From NCBI GenBank assembly GCA_035531955.1, contig DATKRZ010000103.1, forward strand, positions 11,972 to 75,971: a stretch of 64,000 nucleotides of DNA. Direction: 5' to 3'. The notes under the pieces were generated by a model. The model was not told the DNA's origin. It searched no databases and saw only the letters and a list, made by a program, of their open reading frames with translations. Shown piece after piece: positions 8,606 to 24,083 of this stretch; position 1 is the stretch's first letter, and each line of letters starts with the position of its first letter. Position numbers and translations under genes: made by a program. The stretch is from Acidimicrobiales bacterium (lineage in GTDB: Bacteria; Actinomycetota; Acidimicrobiia; Acidimicrobiales; RAAP-2).

Positions 8606-8662
8606 CCCTCCACCCTAGGACCCTCGGCCGTCGTGGGGACCCCGGCGCGGACGCTGCCCGCC

Positions 8663-9301: not shown

Positions 9302-9357
9302 CGGCAAAGGATACCGGCGAGCCGGCGGGAGTGCCCGAGCGGTGCCCCCCGGACCGT

Positions 9358-10743
9358 TCAGCCGAACAGGTGACCGTCGATGGCCCGGTGGTAGTTCCAG
9401 ATGGTCATCTCCTGTTCGGTGTTGAGGTGGTGGCCGTCGTAGCCGCGCGAGTGCAGGCCGGCGGTCACCTCTGACATGTTGGAGAAGTCCTGGCTCAGGA
9501 TCTCGCCCACGTCGCCGTCCCGCCAGTCGTCGAAGAACCGGGGCGCGGCGGTCTCCAGCCCGTCGGCTGTCGGGAGCTCGAGAGCCTGGACGTCGAAGAG
9601 GCAGCTGTCCGGATCGGTGCCGTTCGGCCGGGCCCGGTAGGTCAGACAACACCCCATGTCGACCAGGAACACGGTGTTGGGGAACAGATGCCAGTCGTAC
9701 ATGGCCCCCTTCAGCTGCTCGTCGGTCAGGTCGGGATAGTCGATCCCCACCCGGCGGGCATGCTTTTTCCTCAGTCGCTGGTAGATGGCGTTGCCGTCCG
9801 GGCCATCGGCCCCGGCGGTGGTCACCAGCTCGCCGGCGGCGTCGAGATCCGACCTCAGGTACAGGGCCCGGAGCTCGCGCAGCGAGTATTCGACGTTCCG
9901 CTGGATGGCCCCGGGATCCGCCCGGTAGGCGGCGCGCAGGCTGGTGGAGTCGCCCTCGGGCCCGTAGCGGAAGAGGTCGGCGTGCCGGGAGTGGAGGCGG
10001 AACAGCTCGTTGAACGTCGACCCGTACTGCTCACACTCGGCGATGGTCGGCGGCGTGGCGCTCTTGTCGGCTCGCAGGAGCTGCGGATGGGTCCCGGGCA
10101 CGTGCCAGCTCTCGATGAACGCATCGAGCGCCGTCTTCCAGTTGGCGGGAAGGACGACCGACTTGTACCAGGCGATCCGCATCTCCTCGAGCTTGAAGCC
10201 GTCCAGCCGTCGCGGGAGCGGGTCGAGGAAGTCCTCGAGCGGCTCGGCGTCCGCCTTCATGGTGACGAACACCCATCCACCCCACTGCCCCACCCGGCAT
10301 TCGGGTAGGCAGAGCTCCTCCTTCGGCCGGGGCTCGAAGTGGGCGGCATCGGCCTGGTACCTGATCGATCCGTCCAGGTTCCAGCGCCACGCGTGGAACG
10401 GACAGCGGAACTCGCCGATCCGGCCCTGTCCACTCACCAGCCTGGTCCCCCGGTGCCGGCAGGCATTGAAGTACGCCTTGAGTCCCGACTCGGTGCGGAC
10501 CACGACGATCGACTGATCGCCGATCTCGAAATTCACGTACTGCCCGACCTTCTCCACCTCGTCCATCCGACAGGCGTTCAGCCAGGTCTCCGGGAACAGC
10601 CGCTCCAGTTCGAGGCCGAGGAACTCGGGGTCGGTGTAGCGGCCCTTGGGCACGAAGGCCGGGCCCAGCCGCCACCTCGGGGGCACGTCCGACCCGGACC
10701 CGTCCCTCCCGGTCGACTCCATGGTGGTCGTCTCGGTACTCAT
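9358..10743 (-). CDS. Rieske [2Fe-2S] non-heme-iron oxygenase, alpha subunit type
   Basis: Rieske motif CRHRGTRLV...CPFHAWRW and mononuclear-iron region FIESWHVPGTHP. ATG at 10743 overlaps the upstream stop (ATGA). Confidence 0.9.
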   Translation of the reverse strand: MSTETTTMESTGRDGSGSDVPPRWRLGPAFVPKGRYTDPEFLGLELERLFPETWLNACRMDEVEKVGQYVNFEIGDQSIVVVRTESGLKAYFNACRHRGTRLVSGQGRIGEFRCPFHAWRWNLDGSIRYQADAAHFEPRPKEELCLPECRVGQWGGWVFVTMKADAEPLEDFLDPLPRRLDGFKLEEMRIAWYKSVVLPANWKTALDAFIESWHVPGTHPQLLRADKSATPPTIAECEQYGSTFNELFRLHSRHADLFRYGPEGDSTSLRAAYRADPGAIQRNVEYSLRELRALYLRSDLDAAGELVTTAGADGPDGNAIYQRLRKKHARRVGIDYPDLTDEQLKGAMYDWHLFPNTVFLVDMGCCLTYRARPNGTDPDSCLFDVQALELPTADGLETAAPRFFDDWRDGDVGEILSQDFSNMSEVTAGLHSRGYDGHHLNTEQEMTIWNYHRAIDGHLFG

Positions 10744-11366
10744 CGGCCTCCACCCTCCTCGAGCCAGCCTCCGATCCGTCGGGTCAGCGCGTCGTCCCGC
10801 GCCTGTCCCTCCGCGTCCCCCGACCACTGCCAGGTGTCCGAGTCGATGCGGTGAGCGGCGAGGTGGGCCCGGAGCTCACCGAGCGCCGCGGCCCTGCTCG
10901 CGGCGGTGGCCACCAGGAGGAGACGGGGGCCGGGGCCGGCCAGTGCCGCCGGCGGCAGGAGCTCGACGTGGGCCGGCGAGGCGTCGACGCACACCACCGG
11001 GCCGACCTCGTCGGCCCGGAGGAGTCCGGCCCCGAGCGCCACCACCCCGCCCTGCCCGCACCCGATGAGCGCAGGCCGCCCGAGGGCGAGGTCGTCGAGG
11101 AGGTCGCACACCTGCACCACCGCCTTGGTCAGGGAGACGGGATCGGTCCCCTCGTATCCCGGCAGGATCCGGTACCAGCAGGTGCCCGCCACCTCCATGC
11201 CGTTGGCGGTGTGGGCGTAGTCCCCGAAGGGGGCCACCACCCGTCCCAACCCGTCGACGGCCCGTGCGACCCCGGTGAGGTCGATCGAGCCCGTTCCGTC
11301 ACCGTGCAGCACCACGACGGGTAACCCCGGAGCGGCGGAGTCGGTGTCCCGGTAGGCGAGCTTCAC
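10740..11366 (-). CDS. alpha/beta-hydrolase-fold protein (phospholipase/carboxylesterase-like) lacking the Ser nucleophile
   Basis: VVVLHGDGTGSIDL N-terminus. The nucleophile elbow reads GCGQGG where the family has GFSQGG. GTG start overlaps the upstream stop (GTGA) and its own stop overlaps the Rieske ATG. Confidence 0.7.
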   Translation of the reverse strand: MKLAYRDTDSAAPGLPVVVLHGDGTGSIDLTGVARAVDGLGRVVAPFGDYAHTANGMEVAGTCWYRILPGYEGTDPVSLTKAVVQVCDLLDDLALGRPALIGCGQGGVVALGAGLLRADEVGPVVCVDASPAHVELLPPAALAGPGPRLLLVATAASRAAALGELRAHLAAHRIDSDTWQWSGDAEGQARDDALTRRIGGWLEEGGGR

Positions 11367-13087
11367 CGCCCGGCACCCGTCCGGGGCGACGAGGCGGCGG
11401 CGTGCGCCCCGGCCAGAAATCCGAACACCAGCCCCGGGCCGATCGTCGATCCTCCTCCCGGGTAGCCCTCCCCGAAGACGCCGTCGACGCAGTTGCCGGC
11501 GCCGTACAGCCCACTGATCGGTCCCGAGGCTCCGAGCATCTGACCGTTGGTCCCGACGAGCGGACCGCTGTCGGTGTCGAAGGTGGTACCGACCAGTGAG
11601 ATGGCATGCAGCATCCCGCCGGTGTCGATCGGGTACATGAGCGGATTGGGCAAGTGATTGTCGGGCGCGGCAGGACCGTGGAAGGCGAACTCCACTGCTT
11701 TGGACCCTCGACCGAATTCACCGTCGTGACCGGCTTCCGCCATGGCGTTGAAGCGGGAGATGGTGGTGGCCAGTGCCTCGGCGAACCCCGGCACCAACCC
11801 GACCGGGCCGATGCCCGGGGGCATGGCGGCATTGGTCAGTCGGAGCCGGTCCGCCAACGCAACGGTGAGCCCGGCCACCCCGGAGCCGCTCGTCACGTGG
11901 TCGGCGATCGCCCCGGGCGGCGGGATCGGATAGCGGCCGCCGAACCGATCGGCGGTCCGCTGGTCGTAGACCATGAACATGATCCGATTGACGTACTCGT
12001 CGCCGGCGAAGGCGTGGTGCACCCGCCCTCGGGACTCGTACTCGCGCTTCTCGTCGACGGCCCGTACTCCGAGCCGGTTCACCAGCACCATGCTGTCGCC
12101 AGGAATGGCCCAGACGTCGAGTACCGAGTTGGCGTAGTCGTCGACCGCCTCGAGGACCTGTTGGTTCCACCACCCGTTGTGCATCCCCCCGAACCGGGCG
12201 CCGGCCCGGAGCCCGATGTCCACCAGGTCGCCGGTGTTGGAGGGAACCCCCGAGCCGCCGGCTATGGGACCGCGGAGGAACCGCTCCCGGAGCTCGGGGC
12301 TGTGGGCGAAGCCGCCGGATCCGAACACGACGCCCCCGTGGCACCGGATCCTCCGACATGCCCTTCCGTCATCGACGACGACACCGGTCGTCACCCCGCA
12401 CTCCATCTCCAGGTCCACGACCCGGTGGCCGAGGCGGACCTCGGTTCCCCGCCGGGAGGCGAAGGCCATGAGCTGGCGGACCAGCTCACCCCCGTTGCCG
12501 GCTCCGCCGCCGGGGGCCAACGGCTGGATGCCCCGTCCCCGCACCGCTCGATTCTCCGGGAACTCGAAGTAGTCGGGGAACATCCGGCCGTCCCAGGCCA
12601 GCCAGGGAGCCTCCATCCGCACGGCACCGATCTGGGCCAGGCCGGCCATCACCTCGGCGCCCCGGTCGTAGTACGTCTCCAGCAGGGCATGGTCGGCCGG
12701 CTGGAGACCGAGGCACGGGGAGTCCGGGTCGTAGGTGGCCGGATAGCCCACCCGGGCCATGTAGGCCAGCGCCTCCGGGCGGGGGTCTTCGATGCCGGCG
12801 GCCTGCATCACCGAGTTGGCATAGATATGGGCCACACCGCCCGAACAGGCGGTCGTCCCGCCGTGCACCGGGCCCTTCTCGAAGATGACCACCGAAGCGC
12901 CCCGGCTGAGGGCGCCGGCTGCGGCCGAGAGCGCCGCCGCCCCGCTGCCCGCGACGACGACATCACACTCCTCGGGAACCGCGGAAGGGGGGGCTGCCGG
13001 CGACAGCCGGGCCCCGGGTCGGTGGGCCAGCCCGGCCAGCGCGGCCACCCGTTCGCCCAGAGGGAGCCGGTCCGTAGGTTCGGCCAT
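11363..13087 (-). CDS. FAD-dependent oxidoreductase (KstD / fumarate-reductase flavoprotein-like)
   Basis: CDVVVAGSGAAALSAAAGALSRGASVVIFEKGPVHGGTTACSGG and C-terminal GLYGAGNCVDG...GGGSTIGPGLVFG. ATG at 13087 preceded by GGGAGGG (a TTG at 13111 is also possible). Confidence 0.85.
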   Translation of the reverse strand: MAEPTDRLPLGERVAALAGLAHRPGARLSPAAPPSAVPEECDVVVAGSGAAALSAAAGALSRGASVVIFEKGPVHGGTTACSGGVAHIYANSVMQAAGIEDPRPEALAYMARVGYPATYDPDSPCLGLQPADHALLETYYDRGAEVMAGLAQIGAVRMEAPWLAWDGRMFPDYFEFPENRAVRGRGIQPLAPGGGAGNGGELVRQLMAFASRRGTEVRLGHRVVDLEMECGVTTGVVVDDGRACRRIRCHGGVVFGSGGFAHSPELRERFLRGPIAGGSGVPSNTGDLVDIGLRAGARFGGMHNGWWNQQVLEAVDDYANSVLDVWAIPGDSMVLVNRLGVRAVDEKREYESRGRVHHAFAGDEYVNRIMFMVYDQRTADRFGGRYPIPPPGAIADHVTSGSGVAGLTVALADRLRLTNAAMPPGIGPVGLVPGFAEALATTISRFNAMAEAGHDGEFGRGSKAVEFAFHGPAAPDNHLPNPLMYPIDTGGMLHAISLVGTTFDTDSGPLVGTNGQMLGASGPISGLYGAGNCVDGVFGEGYPGGGSTIGPGLVFGFLAGAHAAASSPRTGAGR

Positions 13088-13179
13088 TGGCGATGCCCTC
13101 CCGAGATCCAACCACCTGCCCCTGGCCCTCGGACGTTACGATATCAGCGGCGTCGAGCGTGGGAGCGGCGAGGGGGTCG

Positions 13180-13584
13180 ATGGCGAAGGTGGGGCTGACG
13201 GTAGAGGACCAGCTGGCCATCCAGCAGCTCGCGGCGCGCTACAACCACGCCATCGACAGCGGGGACGGGGCGGCGTACGCGGACACGTTCGTCGACGACG
13301 GGGTGCTCGACGCCGGCGAACTGGTGCTCGAGGGACGCACCGCCCTCCGGCGGTTCGCCTCGGCGTTCCCCGGTTCTGTCCGCAGTCCCCGCCATGTGGC
13401 GACCAGCCTCCTCATCGACGGCGGCGGCGGCGAGGCCGTGCTCCGCGCCTACGTGCAGATGTACGCCCTCGTCGGCGATCCGCCCCGGCCCACGGTCACC
13501 GCCTCGGGGACGTACACCGACTCCCTGGTCAAGCTCGGAGGGGCCTGGCGCTTCGTCCGACGGACATTCACCGCTGACGCATGA
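13180..13584 (+). CDS. SnoaL-like / NTF2-fold family protein
   Basis: LTVEDQLAIQQLAARYNHAIDSGDGAAYADTFVDDGVLD. ORF trimmed to ATG at 13180, after a GGGAGCGGCGAGGGGG purine tract. Confidence 0.72.
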   Translation: MAKVGLTVEDQLAIQQLAARYNHAIDSGDGAAYADTFVDDGVLDAGELVLEGRTALRRFASAFPGSVRSPRHVATSLLIDGGGGEAVLRAYVQMYALVGDPPRPTVTASGTYTDSLVKLGGAWRFVRRTFTADA

Positions 13585-13640
13585 CCCCAGACCACCCGGC
13601 CCCGACCCGCCGGGGCGCTCGGGACCCCGCCACCACGGAC

Positions 13641-14519
13641 TCAGGGACCATCCGGGCCCGTCGGGGCTCCTTCCCCGTCCCGCACCGCCTGTGACTGCCT
13701 CTCGGCCATCTGGCGGGGTCGCAGGCCCTTGCGGGCGGCCATGAACTCCCGCACATCGGTGGCCGAGCTGGCGATGGTGGTGAAGTCCGCGGTGCTCTGC
13801 AGATGGACCCGCATGCCCATCGTCTCCCAGGCCCGCTTGACCCCGGCCTTGATGGTCAGGATGGTGGTGAGCGGCATCTGGGCGATGGTCGACGCGGTCT
13901 GTTCGACCGCGGCCTCGAGGTCGGCCTTCGGAACCACCCGGTTCACCAGTCCCCACTCCTTCGCCTCCTCCGCCGACAGCGTCGGGGACAGGTAGAGGTA
14001 CTCGTAGGCCCGCTTCCAGTTCATCAACGCCCACGGCTCGACCAGGGTCTGGGCCCCTGGTAGGCCGAACCCCTGGGGTAGGGGCATCTGGAAGTACGCG
14101 TCATCCGACGCGATGGTGAGGTCGGTCAGGTAGCCGTAGATGGTGCCACCACCGAGGCAGTAGCCGTGGACCTGGGCGATGGTCGCCTTGGGGAATTCCC
14201 ACAGATTCAGCGGCGGCCAGACGAAGAGGTCGTAGTTGTGGGCCTTCCAGGTCCGCTCCGGCGTCGGCCCGGTGGTGGGGTACACCTCGGCCATCTCCTC
14301 GGGACTGACGATGGCGTGACCGGCGCAGAACCCCTTGCCGTTGGCCTTCACGATGAGGACCTTCACCTCGTCGTCTCGATCGGCCCATTTCAGCGCGTCC
14401 TCGAAGTCCCAGACCTGTTGGGCGGTCTGGATGTTCGCCTTCTCCGGCAGGTTCAAGACGATCCGGGCGATGGCGCCGTCCTTCTCGTAGATGATCGTCT
14501 CCATCTCGGTTCGCTCCAT
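13641..14519 (-). CDS. enoyl-CoA hydratase/isomerase (crotonase) family, long form
   Basis: IIYEKDGAIARIVLNLPEKAN...VLIVKANGKGFCAGHAIV. SD CAGGAG upstream of ATG at 14519. Confidence 0.9.
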   Translation of the reverse strand: MERTEMETIIYEKDGAIARIVLNLPEKANIQTAQQVWDFEDALKWADRDDEVKVLIVKANGKGFCAGHAIVSPEEMAEVYPTTGPTPERTWKAHNYDLFVWPPLNLWEFPKATIAQVHGYCLGGGTIYGYLTDLTIASDDAYFQMPLPQGFGLPGAQTLVEPWALMNWKRAYEYLYLSPTLSAEEAKEWGLVNRVVPKADLEAAVEQTASTIAQMPLTTILTIKAGVKRAWETMGMRVHLQSTADFTTIASSATDVREFMAARKGLRPRQMAERQSQAVRDGEGAPTGPDGP

Positions 14520-14627
14520 GCGGGCTCTCCTGGTCGTGCCGATAGAGCGGCGCAGACCACTCCGCCGGTAGCCGCCTCTCCGGCGGCTGCCGGTCGGGCC
14601 ACCACAGTACTGTGCGCATCGCGCCCG

Positions 14628-14876
14628 TCACGGCCCGTCGATATACCCGACCTCCTCGCCGACCGGGTAGAGCTGGCCGGGTCGGCCGGTGATGTGGATG
14701 ACGCCCGCCGCCGGGCACTCCACCTCCATCTCCACCTTTTCGGTTTCGAGCAGGTAGAGCGGCTGGCCGGGCCGGACACGCTCGCCCTCGGCGGCCAGCC
14801 ATTCGACGATGGTGCCCTCAGCCATCGCCACGCCGGCCTGGGGGATCTGGATGGGAGTTCGCCGGTTCTCGTTCAT
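14628..14876 (-). CDS. stand-alone lipoyl-attachment domain protein (82 aa, no acyltransferase core)
   Basis: IQIPQAGVAMAEGTIVEWLAAEGERVRPGQPLYLLETEKVEMEVECPAAGV, a lipoyl-Lys context (ETEKV). Trimmed to ATG at 14876, 22 nt after the E1beta stop. Confidence 0.8.
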   Translation of the reverse strand: MNENRRTPIQIPQAGVAMAEGTIVEWLAAEGERVRPGQPLYLLETEKVEMEVECPAAGVIHITGRPGQLYPVGEEVGYIDGP

Positions 14877-14898
14877 CGCCGTGGTCGGTGGCCCGGCG

Positions 14899-15918
14899 TC
14901 AGCCCGGCCGGGCCAGGGCACGGATCCGCTCGGCGATCCGATCCCGGTCGGGATAGTGCAGTTTCTCCAACTCCGCCGCATAGGGAACGGGGGAGTATGC
15001 CGCGCCCAACCGTTCCACCGGAGCCGACAGCCGGCCGAAGAGGTCATGGGACACCATCGAGGCGATCTCGGCCCCAGGTCCGGCGAACTCGGTGGCGGCG
15101 TGCACGACGAGCACCCGGCCGGTCCGGGACCCGCTGGCCAGGATGGTGTCCTTGTCCAGCGGCACCAGGGTCCGCACGTCGACGACCTCGACGCTGGTTC
15201 CCTCAGCGGACAAGGCGTCGGCTGCGGCCAGCGCCTCGGGGACCTGCCAGCCCCAGGTCACCACCGTCACGTCGTCGCCCGCCCGCTTCACGTCGGCGAC
15301 ACCGAGGGGGATCTCGAACCTTCCCGGCGGTACGGGTCCCCGGGTGAACAGCAGCGACATCGTCTCCATGAAGATGCAGGGATCGTCGTCGAAGATGCAC
15401 GAGTACAGGAGGCCCTTGGCCTCGCGGGGCGTGCTCGGAACCACCACCTTCAGACCGGGGATGTGCATCATCCACGCCTCGAGCGACTGCGAGTGCTGGG
15501 CGCCGAACTGGCGGCCGCCGCCGACCGCAGTGCGCAGGGTGATGGGCACGTTGGTCCGGCCCCCCGACATGTAGCGGAGCTTGGCGGCATGGTTGGCCAC
15601 CTGGTCCATGGCCACCGCGAAGAAGTCCATAAGCATCACCTCGGCGATGGGCCGCATCCCGACCAGCGATGCACCGATCGCCGCGCCCACGATGGCCTGC
15701 TCGGAGATCGGGGTGTTCCGAACCCGCTCCCGGCCGTACTTGGTCGAGAGTCCCTTGGTCCCCTTCATGACCCCGCCGATGGGGTCCTCGATGTCCTCCC
15801 CGATCACGAAGACGTCCGGATCGTCGGCCATGGCCTGGTCGATGGCCTGGTTCACCGCCTCCGACATGGTGGAGGCCGGGTCGCCCGGGGCTTCCCGCCT
15901 GCCAGGTTCCACCGTCAT
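14899..15918 (-). CDS. TPP-dependent 2-oxoacid/acetoin dehydrogenase E1 component, beta subunit
   Basis: MSEAVNQAIDQAMADDPDVFVIGEDI...RVRNTPISEQAIVGAAIGASLVGMRPIAEVM. ATG at 15918 overlaps the E1alpha stop (ATGA). Confidence 0.9.
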   Translation of the reverse strand: MTVEPGRREAPGDPASTMSEAVNQAIDQAMADDPDVFVIGEDIEDPIGGVMKGTKGLSTKYGRERVRNTPISEQAIVGAAIGASLVGMRPIAEVMLMDFFAVAMDQVANHAAKLRYMSGGRTNVPITLRTAVGGGRQFGAQHSQSLEAWMMHIPGLKVVVPSTPREAKGLLYSCIFDDDPCIFMETMSLLFTRGPVPPGRFEIPLGVADVKRAGDDVTVVTWGWQVPEALAAADALSAEGTSVEVVDVRTLVPLDKDTILASGSRTGRVLVVHAATEFAGPGAEIASMVSHDLFGRLSAPVERLGAAYSPVPYAAELEKLHYPDRDRIAERIRALARPG

Positions 15919-16940
15919 CCGGGCCCGGCCCCGCGGTCCGAGAAGACGTCGGTCAACAGCTCGTCGGGCGCAGGAGGCGCACTGGCCTTGGCCTGAACGA
16001 CTGCGGCATCCACCCGGGCAACGACGTCGCGCTCGATCTCGTCGAGGACCGCCTCTCCGATCCCCCGCTCCTGGACCAGCCACCGGCGGTAGCGGGCCAC
16101 CGGCTCGTCCGCCTCCGCCTCCGCGAACTCGGCGGGATCCATGTACTCGGTGGTCGATCCGAAGGTGTGCCCGCCCAACCGGTAGGTCATGCACTCGAGA
16201 AAGGTCGGGCCGCCGCCGGCCCGGGCCCGCCCGATGGCCTCCCCCGCGGCTTCGTCCATGGCCGGGACGCTGTTGCCGTCGACCGTCCTTGCTTCCATCC
16301 CGTAGCCCCGGAAGCGGTCGGCCAGGCTCACGGTCCTGGTGAAGTCGGCGAACCGGGTGTGCTCGCCGTACCGGTTGTGCTGGCACACGAACACCACGGG
16401 CACCTCCCACAGCGCGGCCAGGTTGCAGGCCTCGTGGGTTGCGCCGATGCTGGTGGCCCCGTCGCCGAAGTTGACCACGGTCACTTGATCGGTCCCCCTC
16501 AGCTTGCTCGACAGAGCCAGGCCCACGGCGATCGGCAGCCCACCACCGACGACCCCGGTGGTGACCATGAGCCCCGATTTCGGGTCCGAGAGGTGCATCG
16601 GCCCCCCCTTCCCTTTGGACGTCCCGGTGGCCTTTCCGCACATCTCCGCCACCAGCTCGTCGAGGGGGACCCCCTTGGCGATGCAGTCGTGGATCCCCCG
16701 ATAGGTGGTGACCATGTAGTCGTCTCGGCGCAGGTGCTCGCAGATCGCCGCCGGGATGGCTTCCTGGCCCCGCACCCCGTAGTAGGTCATCCGGAACTCC
16801 CCCGAGTTCAATCCCGCGGTTATCCGCTCCTCGGTGGACCGGATGGTGCGCATCGTCTTGAAGATGCGCAGCGCCGCATCCACCGCCGGCCCCCGGGTCC
16901 CGTTATCGGTCGGCTTGGTCCCCCCGGCAGAGGTGGTCAT
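15915..16940 (-). CDS. TPP-dependent 2-oxoacid/acetoin dehydrogenase E1 component, alpha subunit
   Basis: TPP motif GDGATSIGATHEACNLAALWEVPVVFVCQHN. ATG at 16940 overlaps the upstream synthetase stop (ATGA). Confidence 0.9.
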   Translation of the reverse strand: MTTSAGGTKPTDNGTRGPAVDAALRIFKTMRTIRSTEERITAGLNSGEFRMTYYGVRGQEAIPAAICEHLRRDDYMVTTYRGIHDCIAKGVPLDELVAEMCGKATGTSKGKGGPMHLSDPKSGLMVTTGVVGGGLPIAVGLALSSKLRGTDQVTVVNFGDGATSIGATHEACNLAALWEVPVVFVCQHNRYGEHTRFADFTRTVSLADRFRGYGMEARTVDGNSVPAMDEAAGEAIGRARAGGGPTFLECMTYRLGGHTFGSTTEYMDPAEFAEAEADEPVARYRRWLVQERGIGEAVLDEIERDVVARVDAAVVQAKASAPPAPDELLTDVFSDRGAGPG

Positions 16941-18490
16941 CCGGCTTCCCCCGCGGTCGGCACCGATCGGGCACCTCCGAGCCGGGCCCGCACCACCCTT
17001 CGATCGACCTTGCCGAAGTCGTTGTACGGGATCTCCTCCACGAACACCAATTGCTCGGGAATCTTGAAGCCGGCGATGCGACCGGCACAGAACTCCCGCA
17101 GCTGCTCGAGAGTCACCGGTTCGCGGACCACGACGGCGGCACCGACCCGGTGGCCCATCTCCGGGTCGGGGAACCCCACCACCGCCACGTCTCGGACCGC
17201 GGGGTGGGTCCGGACCACGGTCTCCACCTCCGAGGGCGAGAACTTCTCCCCTCCCCGGTTGATGGTGTCGGCCAGTCGTCCCCAGGGGTAGAGGTACCCG
17301 TCGGCGTCCTCGGACATCATGTCCCCGGTGCGGAACCATCCGGCGGGGATCGACGGGTCGTTGGCCTGGGAGTCGGGGATCACGCTGTTGTCACTCTTGA
17401 CCCAGAGCTCGCCGACCGCGCCCGTCGGTACCGACTCGTTGGTCACCGGGTCCGCAATGCGCACTTCGACGCCGGGAAGGGGGCGGCCCACCGAGGCCAG
17501 CCGCTCGGCCGAATGGTCACCGGGCCCCAGCAGGGTGATCGAGCCCAACGTCTCGGTCTGGCCGAAGGTGTTGGCCAGGCCCACGCCGGGGAGGGCGTCC
17601 ATGGCCCGGCGGATCAGCTCGGGCGACGCCGGCGCAGCCCCGTAGGTGAGTGCGGTCAGCGAGCTCAGGTCGGTGGTGGCGAAATCGGGATGCTCGAGGA
17701 TCCGGTAGAGCATGGTCGGCACGAGGAACGACGTGTTCACCCGGTGCCGCTCGACCAGCGCCAGCCACCCGCCGGCATCGAACCGGGTCTGGACCACGGT
17801 GGTGCTGCCCTTGGCCAGCGCCACCAACAGCCCCAGCATCCCGCCGATGTGCACGAACGGCACGCACATCAGGGCCACCGACGGAGCAGGCTCGACGGTC
17901 GGCGAGTAGGCGGCGATCCTCGAGGCGACCATGGAATGCGGAAGCGGCACCGCCTTCGGCGTCCCCGTCGTGCCGCTGGTGAAGAGCACCACGGCGTCCT
18001 CTTGCGGGGCGGGATCGAAGACCGGTGCGCCCTCGGGGTGGTGGTCGGACGCCAGCTCCCCGAGCCCGAGGACCACGCGCTGTCCGGCCTGGCGCAGCAC
18101 GTCGGCATAGGCGGCCCCGGCCACCCCGATCGGAGCCGACTCCACCACCTCCATCAGCACGCCCACCTCGTCGGCGGTCAGGCGGGGGTTCATCAGGGCA
18201 GTCGCCGCTCCGACCCGGGCGGCACCGACCAGGGCGGCCACCGACAGCAGGCTGGCGTCGTCGACCAGGGGGATCCGCCACCCGGGCCGGACCCCGGCCG
18301 AACGGAGGGCGGCGGCAGCTTTGCGGATGGACGCGTCGAGGTCGCCGTAGGTGGTCGACGTCCCGTCGATGACCACGGCCACCCGGCCGGGATCCACCTC
18401 GGTCACTCCTTCGATGACCCTTCCGAGTGTTCTAGCCGGGGGCACGCCGGCCCCGGTCCCTCGACGTCCCTCCGTCGTCGGGACCCCCAT
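16937..18490 (-). CDS. AMP-dependent acyl-CoA synthetase/ligase
   Basis: AMP-binding LFTSGTTGTPKAV and C-terminal GKVDRRV. Start is uncertain (ATG 18490, TTG 18508, or an internal GTG). Confidence 0.85.
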   Translation of the reverse strand: MGVPTTEGRRGTGAGVPPARTLGRVIEGVTEVDPGRVAVVIDGTSTTYGDLDASIRKAAAALRSAGVRPGWRIPLVDDASLLSVAALVGAARVGAATALMNPRLTADEVGVLMEVVESAPIGVAGAAYADVLRQAGQRVVLGLGELASDHHPEGAPVFDPAPQEDAVVLFTSGTTGTPKAVPLPHSMVASRIAAYSPTVEPAPSVALMCVPFVHIGGMLGLLVALAKGSTTVVQTRFDAGGWLALVERHRVNTSFLVPTMLYRILEHPDFATTDLSSLTALTYGAAPASPELIRRAMDALPGVGLANTFGQTETLGSITLLGPGDHSAERLASVGRPLPGVEVRIADPVTNESVPTGAVGELWVKSDNSVIPDSQANDPSIPAGWFRTGDMMSEDADGYLYPWGRLADTINRGGEKFSPSEVETVVRTHPAVRDVAVVGFPDPEMGHRVGAAVVVREPVTLEQLREFCAGRIAGFKIPEQLVFVEEIPYNDFGKVDRRVVRARLGGARSVPTAGEAG

Positions 18491-18555
18491 CTCCCCCGGT
18501 CCGGCCAAATCCGGTCATCGGTGTCCCTCCTCGTCGACCCGACGCGGGCCGGGCC

Positions 18556-19761
18556 TCAGTCTGTCGGTTCGCTGCCGACCACGCCGACGAAGCTGACGCA
18601 CTCTCCGGGGCCACCGCCGAGGTTGTGGGTCAGACCCAGGGTGCGCCCCGGGTCGGCCACGGTGGCGATCTGGCGCTCCGACGGCGCCTTCCGCCGCAGC
18701 TGGAGCCAGCACTCGAACAGCATCCGCAGGCCTGATGCGCCGATCGGGTGGCCGAAGCTCTTGAGGCCTCCGTCGGGATTGACCGGGAGCTCGCCGTCCC
18801 GGTCGAAGGTCCCGGCCAGTACCTCCTTCCACGCAGTGCCCCGCTCGGCGAAGCCGAGGTCCTCCATCAGGACCAGTTCGGTGGGAGTGAAGCAGTCGTG
18901 GACCTCGGCCATGGCCAGTTGGGACCGGGGATCGGTGATCCCCGCCTGCCGGTAGGCGTCGGCCGCCGATCGGACCACCTCCTCGAAGCTGGTGTAGTCG
19001 TACTCGGGGTCGATGATCCCGGCCGCCGGACCGGCGACGAAGCTCAGGCCTTTGACATAGAGGGGCGAGTCGGTATAGCGGGACGCGTCCTCGGTCCGGC
19101 ACACCACCACCGCGGCGGCACCGTCACTGACGCCGCTGCAGTCGAAGACGCCGAGCTGCCCGGCCACCAGCGGCGACGAGGCGATCTTCTCCATCGAGAC
19201 CCCGCTGCGGAACTGGGCCCTCGGGTTGACGGCACCGTTCTGGTGGTTCTTGAAGGCGATCCGGGTCATCACCGCCTTCAGCTCCTCGGGATCGACCCCG
19301 TACTTGTGGGCGTACGCGGGCACCAGAAGCGAGAAGACTGCCGGGGAGCTGAGGCCGGCGTTGGTCCCGTCGCCGACCTGGCGGATACCGGTGAGCCCCG
19401 AGTAGCCGGAGTCCTTCAGCTTCTCCACCCCGACGGCCATGGCCACGTCGTAGGCGCCGGATGCCACCGCGTAACAGGCGTTGCGAAACGCCTCCGAGCC
19501 GGTGGCGCAGAAATTCTCGACCCGGGTCACCGGCTTGTAGTCGATCTTGAGCGGCTTGGACAAGGTGAGCCCGGACTGGCCCGAGCCCATGGTCCCCAGC
19601 CAGAATGCGTCGACGTCCCCGAGGGCGATGCCGGCCGACCGGGCGCACTCGGTGGTGGCGTCGGTCAGGAGGTCGTCGGTGCTCTTGTCCCACAGTTCGC
19701 CGAACGGGGTGCAGCCCATCCCAACGATGGCCACCCGGTCACGAATCCCTCTACTGGCCAC
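18556..19761 (-). CDS. SCP-x/lipid-transfer-type thiolase (nucleophile Cys present)
   Basis: VAIVGMGCTPFGELW and VENFCATGSEAFRNACYAVASGAYDVAMAVGVEK. GTG at 19761 lies 1 nt after the upstream stop, with GGGAGAGGGAGG just upstream. Confidence 0.88.
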   Translation of the reverse strand: MASRGIRDRVAIVGMGCTPFGELWDKSTDDLLTDATTECARSAGIALGDVDAFWLGTMGSGQSGLTLSKPLKIDYKPVTRVENFCATGSEAFRNACYAVASGAYDVAMAVGVEKLKDSGYSGLTGIRQVGDGTNAGLSSPAVFSLLVPAYAHKYGVDPEELKAVMTRIAFKNHQNGAVNPRAQFRSGVSMEKIASSPLVAGQLGVFDCSGVSDGAAAVVVCRTEDASRYTDSPLYVKGLSFVAGPAAGIIDPEYDYTSFEEVVRSAADAYRQAGITDPRSQLAMAEVHDCFTPTELVLMEDLGFAERGTAWKEVLAGTFDRDGELPVNPDGGLKSFGHPIGASGLRMLFECWLQLRRKAPSERQIATVADPGRTLGLTHNLGGGPGECVSFVGVVGSEPTD

Positions 19762-19762
19762 T

Positions 19763-21259
19763 TCAGCCTCCCTCTCCCCCGCCCACCTCGGCGGGCACCA
19801 CCCCTCCGACCTGCTCGCCCCGGTCATCGATCCGGTCGGAGACCGGTCGTGCCTTCCAGAAGTAATTATGCACACCTTGGGCGCTGTAGAACCGACGGAA
19901 GGTCATCTCCACCCGGGTTCCGATGGCCAGTGCCTCCGGGTCGACGTCGGTCATCTCCCCCCGGTACCTGCCGCCGCCGTCGAAATCGATGACCGCGCCG
20001 ACCATCGGAGGGGAGAGGCTGAAGGCCAGCCGGTCCACGGTGAAGGTGGCGACCGTCCCCCGCACACCGGCCAGCCGTTGCGGCTCCATGTGGTCCACCG
20101 ATCGGCACGACAGGCAGACCCGGGTCGGGGGAAGGTGGACGAACCCGCACTCGAGGCAGCGGCTGGCGCCGAAGCCGAACTTCCAACCCTCGTTGCGCCG
20201 CATGGCGGGAGCGTCGGGTCGTTCGGGGTCGGGTCGGCGCGGTGGCTCCCGCCGGAGGTGCCCGCGCCAGGTCAGGTACACCGCGTAGGGCAGGTCGCGA
20301 CGCCCCTGGTCGACTGAGGCGGCCACCTCCATCATCCCCTCCCGGCGCCGTGCCTCCTGTACCCCGACCAGTGCGGGAGTGGTGCGGAAGACCACCGCGT
20401 CGGCGCCGTCGCCCACTCCCAGGACCACGACGGCCTGGTCGGGCCCCGCCCTCTCCAGCACCTCGGCCAGGCCGGTGGCGGCCTGGGCTGCGCCAAGGTT
20501 CCCGATCAGCGAGGTGTAATCGGTGGCCACCCGCTGGGGCGCCACGCCGAGTGTCTTGCGCAGGGTGCCGACGGCTCGGGCATGCAGCCCGGCCACCACC
20601 AGGTGGTCGATCTCGTCGACGGTCAGGCCGGCATCGGCGAGCGCCCCGGAAAACGCCGCCCGGCCCAGTGGCACCAGGGCCTCCTCCCCGAACCGGTCCT
20701 CCCACTGGCGCGAGGCGGAATCGCCCGGGACCCTCCAGCGGTCGAGGAATTCGTGGGTGACGGAGGCGTGGCCGAGCACCTCGGCCACCGCCCCCTCCGG
20801 TGCGAAGACGAAGGCGGCGGCTCCGTCCCCCCCCTGGCTCTCCTCGGCTCCCCCAGCCAACCCGGTACGCAGGTCGGAGACCACGGCGATTGATGCGTGG
20901 CGCTCGCCCTCCAGGGCGGCCAGGCGCATGGCCGCCCAGCCCGAACGGACTGATCCGCAGAGGTCGTAGGCGCCGGTGGACGGGGGGAGGCCCAGGGCGG
21001 CGTGGATGGTGGAGGCGTTGGTCTTGTCCAGGTAGGCCGGATCCGGAGTGGAGAAGAAGAGGTCATCGGGGACCGGCACCCCGGCCGGCTGCAACGCCCG
21101 ACGGGCGGCCTCCACGCCAAGGGTGGTGGTGTCCTCGTCGTAGGACGCCACGGCACGGGTGCCGCGGCCGGGCGTGGTGCCGAATGCGACGCCGATGGAG
21201 GCCCGTTCGAGACGCCAGTACGGGAGGTAGGTGGCCCACGACACGATCCCGGAGGCCAT
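19763..21259 (-). CDS. HMG-CoA-synthase-like (thiolase superfamily) domain fused to a C-terminal DUF35 Zn-ribbon/OB-fold domain
   Basis: N-terminus IVSWATYLPYWRLERASIG...ASYDEDTTTLGVEAARRAL, then YDLCGSVRSG and IGNLGAAQA. C-terminal CLECGFVHLPPTRVCLSCRS followed by an OB-like GTVATFTV...GAVIDFDGG. Confidence 0.85.
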   Translation of the reverse strand: MASGIVSWATYLPYWRLERASIGVAFGTTPGRGTRAVASYDEDTTTLGVEAARRALQPAGVPVPDDLFFSTPDPAYLDKTNASTIHAALGLPPSTGAYDLCGSVRSGWAAMRLAALEGERHASIAVVSDLRTGLAGGAEESQGGDGAAAFVFAPEGAVAEVLGHASVTHEFLDRWRVPGDSASRQWEDRFGEEALVPLGRAAFSGALADAGLTVDEIDHLVVAGLHARAVGTLRKTLGVAPQRVATDYTSLIGNLGAAQAATGLAEVLERAGPDQAVVVLGVGDGADAVVFRTTPALVGVQEARRREGMMEVAASVDQGRRDLPYAVYLTWRGHLRREPPRRPDPERPDAPAMRRNEGWKFGFGASRCLECGFVHLPPTRVCLSCRSVDHMEPQRLAGVRGTVATFTVDRLAFSLSPPMVGAVIDFDGGGRYRGEMTDVDPEALAIGTRVEMTFRRFYSAQGVHNYFWKARPVSDRIDDRGEQVGGVVPAEVGGGEGG

Positions 21260-21287: not shown

Positions 21288-22838
21288 TCAGCGCCCGACG
21301 CCGGCCAGCTGGGCCGCCCGGGCCTTCAGCGCCGACCGGTCGGGCTTCCCGATGCCCAGCAAGGGTATCTCGTCGACGTGGACGACCAACTCGGGAGTCT
21401 TGAACCGGGCCACGCCCTGTGCGGAAAACCATTGCCGGCACTCTTGCACGTCGAGACGGCCGTCCCCCACCACGAATGCCGCCACCCGCTCCCCCAGGCG
21501 CTCGTCCGGGCACCCGACCACCACGGCCTGGCGAACGCCCGGATACGCCTCCAGCAACCGCTCGACCTCCGCCGACGCGATGTTCTCCCCCGCCCGGATG
21601 ATCACGTCCTTGCACCTCCCCACGATGGTCAGCCAGCCGTCGGCATCGAGGGTGCCCAGGTCACCGGTGGCGAACCAGCCGCGGCGCACGGCCTCCGCCG
21701 TCTCCGACGCCTCGCCGTAGCCGACGAAGAGCTCGGGGCCCCGCAACAGGACCTCTCCCTGCTCACCGGGCGGGACACTCCGGTTGCTCAGCGGGTCCAC
21801 CACCCGGATGACCGCGTCGCCGACGCTGCGCCCGTCGGTGTCACGCGCCTTGTCGGGACCGTCGGCGGCGGTGGACGTGGTCACGGTGGGCGCCTCGGTC
21901 GACCCGTAGGTGCGCTTCACCGTCGCCCCCAGCCCCCGGCGGGCCGCATCGATGAACTCGGGGGTCACTCCCATGCCCCCGCAGGAGACCACCCGCAGGC
22001 TGGACAGTCGAGCCGGCGGGCCGGCCACGTCCATCATGTCGAGGAAGAGGGTCGGTGGACCGATCATGAACGAAACCGAGTGCTCGCCGGCCAGCCGCAC
22101 TCCCGCCTCGGGGTCCCACCTCTCCATCAGCACCACGTTCATGGCTGCGGCCCCCGGGACGAGCACGGCGTTCAGCAGTCCCGAGACGTGGGCCAGGGGC
22201 GAGGGCATGAGAGCCACGTCGGCACTCGAAAGGGCATGGGCCCTCACCATCGAGCGGGCCTTGTAGGCGAGGCCCCGGTTGGTGTGGAGCACGGCTTTGG
22301 GATGCCCGGTGGAACCCGAGGTGAACAGGACCACCGCCACGTCGGCGCCCCGCCCGGCTCCCGTCGCCACCGGGTGGCAGGCCAGCAGCTCGCCGAGGCG
22401 CCCGTTTGCGCCGCGCACTCCGATCGTCCCCTGGCGCTCGGCCAGGGGCATGCCCGGGGCGGCGAAGGACGCCGTCGGCCGGAGGGACTCGACCATCCGC
22501 CCCACCTCGGTCGGCCCGACCTGGTGGTGGATGGGGGCAGCCACCGCCCCGCACCGCCAACAGGCGCGGAACAGGGCGATCGCCTCCCACCAATTGGGGA
22601 GTTGCCAGGTGACGACGCTCCCCCTTCGGACGCCGAGCGACCGGAGCCCGCCCGACAGCGCGGCCACCACCCGCTCCAGGGCGGCCGCGTCGAGCCGGGC
22701 CTCTCCGTCGACGATGGCCGGGCCGGACGGCGGACGGCGGGACGACAGGAGCTGGTCGAGCGTCGGGACATCCCACGCGCCCCCGGGGCGCAGATACCGC
22801 GTGGCCTCGGCCTGGCGGTAGGTCGGTCGGAGGTTCAC
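21288..22838 (-). CDS. AMP-dependent acyl-CoA synthetase/ligase
   Basis: VVLFTSGSTGHPKAVLHTNRG. GTG at 22838 overlaps the upstream crotonase stop (GTGA). Confidence 0.88.
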   Translation of the reverse strand: MNLRPTYRQAEATRYLRPGGAWDVPTLDQLLSSRRPPSGPAIVDGEARLDAAALERVVAALSGGLRSLGVRRGSVVTWQLPNWWEAIALFRACWRCGAVAAPIHHQVGPTEVGRMVESLRPTASFAAPGMPLAERQGTIGVRGANGRLGELLACHPVATGAGRGADVAVVLFTSGSTGHPKAVLHTNRGLAYKARSMVRAHALSSADVALMPSPLAHVSGLLNAVLVPGAAAMNVVLMERWDPEAGVRLAGEHSVSFMIGPPTLFLDMMDVAGPPARLSSLRVVSCGGMGVTPEFIDAARRGLGATVKRTYGSTEAPTVTTSTAADGPDKARDTDGRSVGDAVIRVVDPLSNRSVPPGEQGEVLLRGPELFVGYGEASETAEAVRRGWFATGDLGTLDADGWLTIVGRCKDVIIRAGENIASAEVERLLEAYPGVRQAVVVGCPDERLGERVAAFVVGDGRLDVQECRQWFSAQGVARFKTPELVVHVDEIPLLGIGKPDRSALKARAAQLAGVGR

Positions 22839-23752
22839 CGGCCCGGGACAGGTCCCTCCACCAGGTCCGGAGTCGCCATTCGCACCGGTGGGGCATCCTT
22901 CCAATTGGGTATCCCGTCAGCGGGCTCGGCCACCGGATACTTGCTCTCATGGATCTCCGCCCAGTGGGAGTGGTTCAACTGGTGGAGGGTGAAGCAGGCC
23001 TGCAGGGAGTTGTAGAAGCCCATGTTGTCCACCGTCTGGTTCACCGACTCCTTGATCATCAGTGCGGTCATGGTCGGTACCTGGGCGATCCGGCGAGCGT
23101 AGGCGAGGGTCCGCTCCGACAGTTCGGCCGCGGGGAAGACCTTGCTCACCATCCCGAGCCGGTGGGCCTCGTGGACATCGATGGCGTCGCCGGTCAGCAT
23201 CATCTCCTTGGTGCGTCGCGGCCCGAATTCCCACGGGTGCCCGAAGTACTCCATCCCGCACATCCCGAGGCGGGTGCCGACGACATCGGCGAAGTACACG
23301 TCGTCGGCGGCCACGATCAGGTCGCAGGCCCACATCAGCATGAGGCCGGCCGAGTACACCGTGCCCTGCACCTGGGCCACCGTGATCTTCCGCAGATTGC
23401 GCCACCTCATCGTGTTCTGGAAGTAGTAGTGCCACTCCTGGAGCATGCGGGCCTCGGCACCCTTGCGGGTGGCGCCGTTGATGGTGGCGGTGCGGTGCTG
23501 GCCAGGGCCGGGCTCACGCTCGGCCCTGGCCTCCTTGGACCCCATGTCGTGGCCCGAGGAGAACAGCGGCCCCACCCCACCCAGGATGACCACCCGCACC
23601 TTGTCCTCCTCTTCGGCCCGGCCGAACGCGTCGTCGAGGTCCACCAGCAACCCGCGGTTCTGGGCGTTCCGGGTGTCGGGCCGGTTGAGCAGGATGCGGA
23701 CCACCTCGCCGCCCTCCAGCTCCTCGTACGTCACGTACCTGTAGTCAGTCAT
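22835..23752 (-). CDS. enoyl-CoA hydratase/isomerase (crotonase) family, long form
   Basis: VVRILLNRPDTRNAQN...VVILGGVGPLFSSGHDMG. Paralogous in layout to the 13641..14519 gene. Confidence 0.9.
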   Translation of the reverse strand: MTDYRYVTYEELEGGEVVRILLNRPDTRNAQNRGLLVDLDDAFGRAEEEDKVRVVILGGVGPLFSSGHDMGSKEARAEREPGPGQHRTATINGATRKGAEARMLQEWHYYFQNTMRWRNLRKITVAQVQGTVYSAGLMLMWACDLIVAADDVYFADVVGTRLGMCGMEYFGHPWEFGPRRTKEMMLTGDAIDVHEAHRLGMVSKVFPAAELSERTLAYARRIAQVPTMTALMIKESVNQTVDNMGFYNSLQACFTLHQLNHSHWAEIHESKYPVAEPADGIPNWKDAPPVRMATPDLVEGPVPGR

Positions 23753-23891: not shown

Positions 23892-24083
23892 TCAGTCGGC
23901 GATGCTCAGCGCGACCTTGGGGCAGGACCTCACGGCCATCTCGACCTTCGATCGAAGGCCTTCGTCCGGCTCCTCGGCGAGGACATGGAGCTCGTCGTCG
24001 TCGCTCACCTCGAACACCTCGGGGGCTGCGGCCATGCAAAGGGCGTTGGACTCGCACCGGCCCCGGTCCACGATCACCCGCAT
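23892..24083 (-). CDS. small ferredoxin (3-Cys pattern CxxNxxC...CP)
   Basis: C-terminal 63 codons of ORF 23892..25664: MRVIVDRGRCESNALCMAAAPEVF...VRSCPKVALSIAD. ATG at 24083. Confidence 0.8.
   Translation of the reverse strand: MRVIVDRGRCESNALCMAAAPEVFEVSDDDELHVLAEEPDEGLRSKVEMAVRSCPKVALSIAD

Follow-up and report, generated by a model that had tools for sequence, protein, structure and literature searches.

DUF35 proteins consist of a zinc ribbon and an oligonucleotide/oligosaccharide-binding (OB) fold, and their fusion to domains of the thiolase superfamily was noted together with the first DUF35 structure in 2010 (PMC2954200). Here we analyze one such fusion, encoded in a 64-kb stretch of DNA (the window; ~70% G+C) on contig DATKRZ010000103.1 of an Acidimicrobiales bacterium, where gene A specifies a domain resembling hydroxymethylglutaryl-coenzyme A (HMG-CoA) synthase (HMGS) joined to DUF35, and gene B, its immediate neighbour, a thiolase. 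The closest relatives of the window are all metagenome-assembled genomes of soil and peat Acidimicrobiales and Acidimicrobiaceae, with protein identities of up to 91%.

Genome mining has recovered 1,030 bacterial loci with genes for HMGS, ACAT-type thiolase and DUF35, of which 1,001 are without secondary-metabolism genes (Nat Commun 2026;17:2196, PMC12960953). The representative chosen in that study was PfACAT/HMGS-DUF35 of P. fluorescens, in which HMGS and DUF35 are fused; its HMGS lacks the Glu-Cys-His-Asn tetrad and its ACAT keeps the Cys, HDxF and GHx motifs (PMC12960953). The Pf complex makes neither acetoacetyl-CoA nor HMG-CoA from acetyl-CoA, but it cleaves acetoacetyl-CoA thiolytically, an activity that is nearly abolished by the H294Y substitution in HDxF, and a version of the archaeal complex with all four tetrad residues mutated makes no HMG-CoA (PMC12960953). 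The authors regard the Pf complex as an evolutionary intermediate that has not been recruited to a pathway (PMC12960953).

The gene pair of the window shows exactly this set of features, namely a fused HMGS-DUF35 beside an ACAT-type thiolase, loss of the HMGS Glu/Cys/His triad, retention of the thiolase Cys, HDxF and GHx motifs, and no polyketide synthase (PKS) or non-ribosomal peptide synthetase (NRPS) genes among the open reading frames (ORFs) scanned across the 64 kb. By its sequence features it is therefore assigned to the ACAT/HMGS-DUF35 two-protein kind, and with the Pf pair it falls into the majority class of bacterial HMGS, ACAT and DUF35 loci; the fusion as such is not new. Unlike the P. 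fluorescens pair, it keeps the Asn of the tetrad and is located in a catabolic operon of beta-oxidation type; the gene order in the window is fusion and then thiolase.

Three further groups of DUF35 assemblies have features in common with the pair. All three modules of the pair find one of their nearest counterparts in the archaeal thiolase/HMGCS/DUF35 complex (6ESQ), in agreement with the kinship supposed in an earlier note on this DNA. The thiolase of this complex is the best match of gene B and agrees with it in the Cys, HDCF and GH motifs. However, the archaeal HMGCS is active, its DUF35 is a free protein and the complex serves mevalonate biosynthesis, whereas gene A has lost the triad, is a fusion, is bacterial and stands in a catabolic context; because of the triad loss we do not regard the pair as a version of the active archaeal complex. 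PhlACB of Pseudomonas protegens (5M3K/5MG5) and MucABC of Streptococcus (9VBO/9VBT) combine a catalyst of the thiolase fold with a DUF35 bridge and a tetrad-less HMGS-like subunit serving as structural partner, and gene A is likewise an HMGS-like subunit without the triad, with a probable structural role. These complexes differ in being made of three separate proteins, in acting on small-molecule acceptors, in their location in secondary-metabolite clusters and in their thiolase-like subunits, PhlC and MucB, which have lost HDxF (PMC12960953). Since HDxF is kept here and PKS/NRPS genes were not found in the ORFs scanned, the pair is not placed with them. In BbsAB (7PXP), the Sulfolobus ketothiolase (KT)/DUF35 complex, Ltp2-ChsH2 (6OK1) and Sal-Shy, DUF35 binds an SCP2-fold enzyme acting on bulky acyl-CoAs in catabolism, but an HMGS-like domain is absent and DUF35 is either free or fused to a MaoC hydratase. 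BbsB and KT keep HDxF and the nucleophile Cys, like gene B. Ltp2 and Sal are aldolases without the nucleophile Cys (Gly in Sal), and YDHF or YDCY replaces HDCF (PMC12329534); gene B does not belong with these two because it keeps both the Cys and HDCF.

Architecture and catalytic residues of the pair

Gene A encodes a single polypeptide with an HMGS-like fold followed by the DUF35 zinc ribbon and OB fold (domain limits in Table 1), an arrangement proposed in the earlier note and confirmed here by Pfam, PDB and AlphaFold2/Foldseek comparisons. Pfam places ACP_syn_III_C at aa 207-286 (E 5.6e-9), zf-ChsH2 at aa 365-387 and OB_ChsH2_C at aa 395-455 (E 6.6e-13). In searches against PDB sequences the N-terminal part matched PhlA (9skh_A, 3.4e-21) and archaeal HMGCS (6esq_I, 1.1e-20), and the C-terminal part archaeal DUF35 (6esq_E, 8.6e-9). 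With a profile built from 101 family members these matches strengthened to 3.5e-63 for PhlA, 9.6e-62 for the 6esq HMGCS and 1.2e-25 for the 6esq DUF35. The last is the best PDB match of the DUF35 module and aligns with it through its C-terminus, including the Y-x-[YW]-K-x-x-P motif, which in gene A reads Y466-x-W468-K469-x-x-P472. The zinc ribbon cysteines are Cys368, Cys371, Cys382 and Cys385, ~90% conserved across the family. The linker between the two parts bridges the end of the alignment to archaeal HMGCS (6esq_I, aa 335) and the start of the alignment to the free archaeal DUF35 (6esq_E, ~aa 346-360). An AlphaFold2 model of gene A built on the family alignment has a mean predicted local distance difference test score (pLDDT) of 94.4 and a predicted TM score (pTM) of 0.92, and only the tail at aa 477-498 is disordered. 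The best Foldseek matches of the model are the HMGCS chains of 6ESQ/6ET9 (TM 0.89-0.90 by target, root mean square deviation 2.0-2.1 Å), followed by PhlA (TM 0.84-0.85) and MucA (0.80-0.84).

The canonical catalytic residues of HMGS are replaced in gene A. In a phmmer alignment to 6esq_I, the Glu (GSES), Cys (FACKAG) and His (FHQPNG) correspond to Pro72, Val104 and Ala223. A MAFFT alignment, which besides the query, 6esq_I and PhlA comprised 96 diverse fusion proteins in full length with 30-55% identity, reproduces this mapping, and a profile-HMM alignment to S. aureus HMGCS (Glu79, Cys111, His233) gives the identical one. None of the 96 diverse fusion proteins has Glu, Cys or His at the triad positions, where the family consensus is Thr, Leu and Ser/Ala/Tyr, and the scores of gene A against the HMGCS equivalog models of NCBIfam are under the cutoff (NF003274, 133 bits vs. 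244; TIGR00748, 84 vs. 353). Because of the triad loss the domain is taken as non-condensing, and judged by these alignments it is a pseudoenzyme as regards the canonical mechanism. The earlier note, which had itself made its proposal hinge on the triad, had treated it as a catalytic partner and cited the Cys of YDLCGSVRSG, and neither point withstands the alignment. The motif is present, as are the other motifs quoted in that note (IGNLGAAQA, CLECG...CLSCRS and, in gene B, NFCATGS), but its cysteine is Cys101, and the nucleophile-equivalent residue is Val104. A role of Cys101 as a displaced nucleophile was also considered and rejected: its counterpart in archaeal LEFAC is the Glu, which precedes the true Cys by three residues, and the position of Cys101 is occupied by Gly, Ala, Thr or Ser across the family, with Cys in only 67 of 118 close orthologues. 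The tetrad Asn of HMGS has its counterpart in Asn254 (IGNLG), which the close clade conserves but which varies family-wide; the nearby His226 is also conserved in the close clade.

Gene B has the fold, the nucleophile Cys, the HDCF motif and the GH oxyanion His of an SCP2-type thiolase (type-1; HDCF class). It matches Thiolase_N and Thiolase_C_1 (PF22691, 4.2e-32) in Pfam and exceeds the cutoff of NF004810 in NCBIfam (587 bits vs. 403), and its best PDB match is the archaeal thiolase 6esq_A (1.7e-59), with SCP2-thiolases 6hsj and 3zbg also matched. Cys85 in NFCATGS, His288 and Cys290 in VHDCF and His338 in GHPIGASG are aligned with the corresponding residues of the archaeal thiolase. Among the partner thiolases of 87 fusion loci (see below) Cys85 is present in every case, HDCF in 82 and GHP in 81-82, the exceptions being gapped or oddly aligned. 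The thiolase with an intact nucleophile lies 1 nt downstream of the fusion gene, as had been stated: the stop codon of gene A (TGA, 19765-19763) is followed by one nucleotide and then by the GTG start of gene B at 19761, and the ribosome-binding site of gene B, GGAGAGGGAGG, is located within the 3' end of gene A.

Distribution, selection and synteny

A word-indexed homologue search with gene A returned >7,700 matches, of which the top 120 were full-length (470-520 aa). In an exhaustive search of representatives clustered at 50% identity, 3,179 clusters were found at E<=1e-3 and 573 at E<=1e-30, and many of the latter are full-length fusions of 450-500 aa with 30-55% identity. Members occur in Bacillota (Peribacillus), Chloroflexota (Dehalococcoidales), Syntrophales, Binatia, sphingomonads, Azoarcus and Variovorax and on megaplasmids of Rhodococcus and Mycobacterium, the identity of those in Pseudomonadota being 30-33% over the full length. 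Residues D41, D43, G285, D409, R455, Y466, W468 and K469 are invariant across the family, and R105, R131, R176 and R189 are conserved. The possibility that the fusion is an assembly artefact, on which the earlier note had made its proposal depend, is rejected in view of the large family, its presence on finished plasmids and chromosomes and the pTM of the model.

A thiolase gene is found within 400 nt downstream of the fusion gene, on the same strand, in all of 87 loci, which include those of Bacillota, Syntrophales, Dehalococcoidales, Binatia, Rhodococcus and sphingomonads, and the same arrangement is seen in three additional plasmid loci, of M. avium, Azoarcus and Variovorax. The thiolase is the more conserved of the two proteins, with a mean identity of 82% vs. 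66% for the fusion partner in the same loci (61% vs. 36% in Peribacillus and 71% vs. 50% in Rhodococcus). Ratios of nonsynonymous to synonymous substitution rates (dN/dS), computed against seven close orthologues, are 0.06-0.085 in the thiolase; the DUF35 part has 0.07-0.13 and the HMGS-like domain 0.16-0.24. Purifying selection thus acts on every part and is most relaxed on the dead HMGS-like domain. A slowly evolving thiolase with a faster partner is the pattern expected of a catalytic subunit with a selected structural partner. In one locus (L038, 10001-11499) a 90%-identical orthologue seems to be split or truncated: its protein, P0083, is no longer than 350 aa, and just 189 codons from the HMGS-like domain could be aligned in one piece, so that a frameshift or assembly error is possible.

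In the window the pair is flanked by two acyl-CoA synthetases (ACS2 upstream, ACS1 downstream) and the genes for the alpha and beta subunits of a 2-oxoacid dehydrogenase E1 follow ACS1, a setting described earlier as an E1/synthetase operon. The genes are all present, but a conserved association is not borne out by a set of 80 Acidimicrobiales loci. The core that is conserved among these is hydratase, ACS2, fusion and thiolase; the hydratase is kept in 41 loci and ACS2 stands upstream of the fusion throughout the closest orthologous group. E1 alpha/beta genes, in contrast, are found in 17-18 of the 80 loci, and together with a second ligase in only ~18 of the ~44 closest orthologous loci, so that E1 was rejected as a conserved functional partner. 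Where present, they are usually accompanied by a second hydratase, less regularly by SnoaL, flavoprotein and Rieske genes and sometimes by an ACS1 orthologue (62-89% identity), which directly follows the thiolase in only part of the E1-bearing related loci.

Elsewhere, in ~19 loci, orthologues of the acyl-CoA dehydrogenase (ACAD) and/or short-chain dehydrogenase/reductase (SDR) come after the thiolase, genes that in the window sit 10 kb further on; one or both were seen in L019, L020, L023, L024, L027, L029, L031, L033, L036, L037, L039, L040 and L073. When compared with these loci (all but L029 and L033), the block from ACS1 to the Rieske gene (~8400-18508) looks like an insertion between thiolase and ACAD/SDR. 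The broader conserved unit is hydratase - CoA ligase - fusion - thiolase - ACAD - SDR, with E1, second ligase and Rieske genes variable. What had been called an E1/synthetase operon would thus be an insertion into a beta-oxidation-type unit made up of ligase, dehydrogenase, hydratase, hydroxyacyl-CoA dehydrogenase and thiolase, since E1 is patchy and ACAD/SDR follow the thiolase elsewhere.

Beta-oxidation genes are syntenic with the pair in most of the independent contexts examined. In Peribacillus it is preceded by genes for an acyl-CoA synthetase, an ACAD, a MaoC pair, an enoyl-CoA hydratase (ECH) and an SDR and followed by an ACAD pair, TetR and a CoA-transferase, and similar neighbour sets surround it in Rhodococcus DK17 (pDK3; PST05_RS38995/38990), Sphingobium, N. 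pentaromativorans, M. avium (pP7a), Azoarcus and Variovorax. On the M. avium plasmid pP7a (locus L088, 1688-11545) three hydratases, a CoA ligase, Rieske dioxygenase alpha and beta subunits, a hypothetical gene and a conventional thiolase are followed by the fusion gene, the SCP2-type thiolase and then a divergent TetR gene. The combination of ligase, ring-hydroxylating dioxygenase and DUF35-associated thiolase on this plasmid recalls the ipf cluster for ibuprofen degradation. Contrary to the published view of an unrecruited complex, the pair appears from its synteny to have been recruited frequently into CoA-dependent catabolic operons, seemingly those of beta-oxidation type.

A Syntrophales locus (L082, 5856-11899) has genes for an ApbA-like reductase and a beta-keto acid cleavage enzyme (BKACE) before the pair and a DUF362 gene after it, with no beta-oxidation genes nearby. 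On this account the fusion family may serve another pathway in anaerobes.

Proposed role and alternative explanations

We consider it quite likely that the two proteins form an ACAT/HMGS-DUF35 thiolase complex in which gene B is the sole catalyst and gene A a non-catalytic partner, and that the complex performs a thiolysis of the beta-oxidation type. This reading draws on the architecture, the triad loss, the thiolase motifs, the adjacency, the selection pattern and the synteny described above, as well as on the published inactivity of the fused HMGS and the thiolytic activity of its complex. Because the conserved core comprises hydratase, ligase, fusion, thiolase, ACAD and SDR, the pair most likely serves as the thiolytic step within a specialised route of beta-oxidation. 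The earlier note had envisaged a CoA-dependent machine for making or breaking C-C bonds; the retro-condensing sense of that proposal is upheld, and the condensing synthase falls with the triad.

In the proposed mechanism, Cys85 of gene B would attack a 3-oxoacyl-CoA to give an acyl-Cys85 intermediate, with the His and Cys of HDCF and the His of GHP expected to provide acid-base catalysis and the oxyanion site. CoA would then set free acetyl-CoA or propionyl-CoA and the acyl-CoA in its shortened form. If the complex forms in this organism as we presume, the DUF35 module of gene A would, by analogy with the solved archaeal, PhlACB and MucABC complexes, bridge the thiolase to the synthase-like body, and gene A may hold and solubilise the thiolase dimer and help to form a shared chamber for CoA and acyl groups. 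The pair would then carry out the last, thiolytic step of a beta-oxidation-type round, presumably in the degradative direction in vivo, with the hydratase, ligase, ACAD and SDR encoded alongside. The substrate would be a carboxylic acid, probably one of the bulky, branched or alicyclic class.

Several observations weigh against this role. The relatedness to the Pf proteins is one of shared architecture and motifs and not a measured sequence identity. Because Asn254 and His226 are conserved in the close clade, the old pocket of HMGS could conceivably still bind a ligand or have some non-canonical activity left. Furthermore, the pair is without beta-oxidation neighbours in Binatia, Syntrophales and a second Acidimicrobiaceae paralogue group, and its pathway role therefore need not be uniform.

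A more specific version of the degradative role, which we put forward only tentatively and hold to be somewhat doubtful, is that the complex is a dedicated thiolase for bulky alicyclic, branched or steroid-derived 3-oxoacyl-CoAs and that the dead HMGS cavity has been selected as part of the chamber or as an entry gate. If so, the same module would explain the unassigned "HMG-CoA synthase" gene of the oestrogen-degradation (edc) clusters. In the edc cluster of N. tardaugens the "HMG-CoA synthase" gene EGO55_13555 adjoins the thiolase gene EGO55_13550, and the operon also has genes for a 3-hydroxyacyl-CoA dehydrogenase and an ACAD; EGO55_13555 falls outside the canonical HMGS groups and was given no function by the authors (PMC7793797). 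Like gene A, it is an HMGS homologue encoded next to a thiolase in a catabolic operon; it is likely a related case and may carry the DUF35 fusion. A sphingomonad-seeded homologue search returned ~480-aa proteins of Novosphingobium and Sphingobium, with no named N. tardaugens entry among its matches, and the sphingomonad fusion members have the order SDR, fusion, thiolase. The pair may resolve a gene without assignment in oestrogen-degradation clusters.

Thousands of such genes are annotated as "hydroxymethylglutaryl-CoA synthase" or "OB-fold domain-containing protein". The former label wrongly implies mevalonate or HMG-CoA biosynthesis in bacteria that degrade lipids or terpenoid-like or steroid-like acids, and reading the product as the non-catalytic half of a thiolase would correct pathway reconstructions in soil Acidimicrobiia and in the catabolic islands of Rhodococcus, mycobacteria and sphingomonads. 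The fusion also appears to be a clean natural example of a pseudoenzyme that has been kept and fused as a scaffold.

Among the alternatives, the one that fares best, though we think it unlikely, also assumes thiolase chemistry, acting on the acyl-CoA side chain of a ring freshly oxidised by a CoA-ester-specific Rieske oxygenase. In the degradation of ibuprofen, such side-chain removal is the proposed task of IpfD/IpfE, a pair of SCPx-thiolase and DUF35 proteins. A Rieske alpha subunit and a second CoA ligase are encoded in the same minus-strand string as the pair, and on M. avium pP7a a ligase and dioxygenase alpha and beta subunits lie upstream of it. However, most orthologous loci lack the Rieske/E1/ACS1 block and have plain beta-oxidation neighbours instead, and sequence by itself gives no grounds for dihydrodiol-type chemistry.

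It is less probable still that the pair is a Friedel-Crafts C-acyltransferase or deacylase of the PhlACB/MucABC type, with acetyl groups transferred to, or removed from, a small molecule of phenolic or 1,3-dicarbonyl nature and not a CoA thioester. PhlA and MucA have a similar tetrad-less HMGS-like domain, PhlA is the top sequence match of gene A, and nearby Rieske oxygenase, vicinal oxygen chelate (VOC) and amidohydrolase genes hint at aromatic or ring chemistry. Nevertheless, the HDCF motif absent from PhlC and MucB is retained in gene B and in nearly all its counterparts, PKS/NRPS genes are lacking in the scanned ORFs, and gene B is far nearer to archaeal ACAT than to PhlC (~1e-21 to 4e-23).

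An equally improbable alternative is that the complex works in the biosynthetic direction, the DUF35-scaffolded thiolase driving a Claisen condensation by passing its product to partner enzymes. Thiolases are reversible, and DUF35 assemblies that favour condensation exist in archaea, where condensation by product hand-over has been proposed for a ketothiolase/DUF35 fatty-acid synthase complex (bioRxiv 10.1101/2024.07.05.601840); some members of the present family also stand alone, without catabolic neighbours. Against this, the Pf complex made no acetoacetyl-CoA from acetyl-CoA (PMC12960953), the neighbouring genes (CoA ligase, ACAD, hydratases, SDR, oxygenases and a TetR regulator) are typical of catabolism, and the HMGS that would have to pull the reaction is dead.

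We give hardly any credence to an active HMGS-like enzyme, to which 3-oxoacyl-CoA made by the thiolase would be channelled for a second Claisen-type condensation to an HMG-CoA-like product: gene A is closest in fold and sequence to the HMGCS of the archaeal channelling complex, gene B is closest to the thiolase of that complex and the tetrad Asn is kept, but the replaced triad, the inconstant Cys101, the sub-cutoff equivalog scores and the catabolic gene context all speak against it, and neither the archaeal tetrad mutant nor the natural Pf complex makes HMG-CoA (PMC12960953). No better founded is a retro-aldolase of the Ltp2/Sal type, in which a DUF35-held thiolase fold would act on a 3-hydroxyacyl-CoA side chain and cleave it with no covalent intermediate, and for which the steroid-like catabolic surroundings with a KstD-like flavoprotein, P450s and many ACADs could be cited, but Cys85 and HDCF are present, gene B scores 74 bits against Ltp2 (6ok1_A) vs. 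205 against archaeal ACAT, and DUF35 is there fused to a MaoC hydratase and not to an HMGS fold.

Neighbouring genes and other features of the window

The coordinates of the gene pair, its domains and its principal neighbours are given in Table 1. ACS2 is the second gene of the conserved core; its likely GTG start overlaps the stop codon of the hydratase gene (GTGA), and a gap of 28 nt separates it from the fusion gene. Its best NCBIfam matches, all sub-cutoff, are medium-chain and cyclohexanecarboxylate CoA ligases. In the variable block, ATGA start/stop overlaps link ACS1 to E1 alpha and E1 alpha to E1 beta and suggest that a CoA ligase is translationally coupled to the E1 of a thiamine-diphosphate 2-oxoacid dehydrogenase; the ORFs scanned in the window included no gene for an E2 (lipoyl-acyltransferase) or E3. 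E1 beta is followed by a second hydratase, a plus-strand SnoaL-like gene, a KstD-like flavoprotein, a 208-aa ORF and the Rieske oxygenase alpha subunit, and after these come the ACAD, the SDR, a family-III CoA-transferase, a PIG-L-family gene, a conventional thiolase and a P450. The ACAD resembles the large subunit of pimeloyl-CoA dehydrogenase and the flavoprotein resembles KstD and ChcC1, in both cases below the NCBIfam cutoff. These similarities and the cyclohexanecarboxylate ligase match of ACS2 are suggestive of an acid of alicyclic, dicarboxylic or steroid-like nature, without identifying it.

Table 1 Coordinates of the gene pair, its domains and neighbouring genes in the window
Feature	Position	Strand	Details and evidence
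Gene A, HMGS-like pseudoenzyme (predicted) joined to DUF35	19763-21259	minus	498 aa; ORF, Pfam, PDB matches, AlphaFold2, Foldseek
HMGS-like thiolase-fold domain, aa 1-335	20255-21259	minus	Glu/Cys/His positions are Pro72/Val104/Ala223; Asn254 kept
Pro/Arg-rich linker (EPPRRP...), conserved, aa 336-360	20180-20254	minus	family consensus; pLDDT 92-96
DUF35 module, aa 361-476	19832-20179	minus	C4 zinc ribbon and OB fold; Pfam zf-ChsH2, OB_ChsH2_C
Gly-rich disordered tail, unconserved, aa 477-498	19766-19831	minus	pLDDT <50; homologues align only to ~aa 475
Gene B, SCP2/archaeal-type thiolase	18556-19761	minus	401 aa; Pfam, NCBIfam, PDB match
Ferredoxin, 63 aa, head of operon	23892-24083	minus	Fer4_13/Fer4_15; MRVIVDRGRCESNALC...SCPKVALSIAD
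Enoyl-CoA hydratase (PRK08290 subfamily), conserved core	22835-23752	minus	ECH_1 1.2e-34; NF006140 387 bits vs. cutoff 280
Acyl-CoA synthetase ACS2, conserved core	21288-22838	minus	Pfam AMP-binding 5.2e-63; maximal ORF to 22904
Acyl-CoA synthetase ACS1, first gene of variable block	16937-18508	minus	Pfam AMP-binding 5.8e-71
E1 alpha, thiamine-diphosphate 2-oxoacid dehydrogenase, variable block	15915-16940	minus	Pfam, E1 alpha and beta together: E1_dh 5.4e-62, Transket_pyr, Transketolase_C; NCBIfam
E1 beta, variable block	14899-15918	minus	Transket_pyr, Transketolase_C
Acyl-CoA dehydrogenase (ACAD)	7109-8332	minus	Pfam; NCBIfam pimC-like
SDR	6233-7093	minus	Pfam; PRK12428 261 bits vs. cutoff 242
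P450 genes	827-2383; 33108-34313

The ferredoxin gene at the head of the operon is masked by a long spurious ORF on the minus strand, in whose tail it lies. Its product may be a P450 redox partner, as the window has two P450 genes. The convergent plus-strand Amidohydro_2 gene probably starts near 24300, and not at 23877 or 23985, a choice based on the G+C content at third codon positions (GC3).

A second, classical pair is encoded on the plus strand, with a free DUF35 protein of 156 aa at 40724-41194 (zf-ChsH2 2.9e-8, OB_ChsH2_C 2.1e-17) directly followed by an SCP2-like thiolase at ~41184-42399, which has 28% identity to gene B. The region therefore holds both free-DUF35 and HMGS-fused-DUF35 thiolase partnerships. 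A 513-aa plus-strand product (54990-56531), encoded between an ACAD gene (53769-54977) and an Amidohydro_2 gene (56596-57891), matches Thiolase_C_1 only faintly (7e-5) and is weakly similar to gene A as well as to gene B. It may represent a further divergent protein of the thiolase fold, perhaps a non-catalytic one. The window contains at least eight ACAD genes. One of the minus-strand products (44829-47081; 750 aa) contains two tandem ACAD units, with Acyl-CoA_dh_N and Acyl-CoA_dh_1 found twice each, and resembles a fused form of the two-subunit ACADs of steroid and bulky-acid catabolism.

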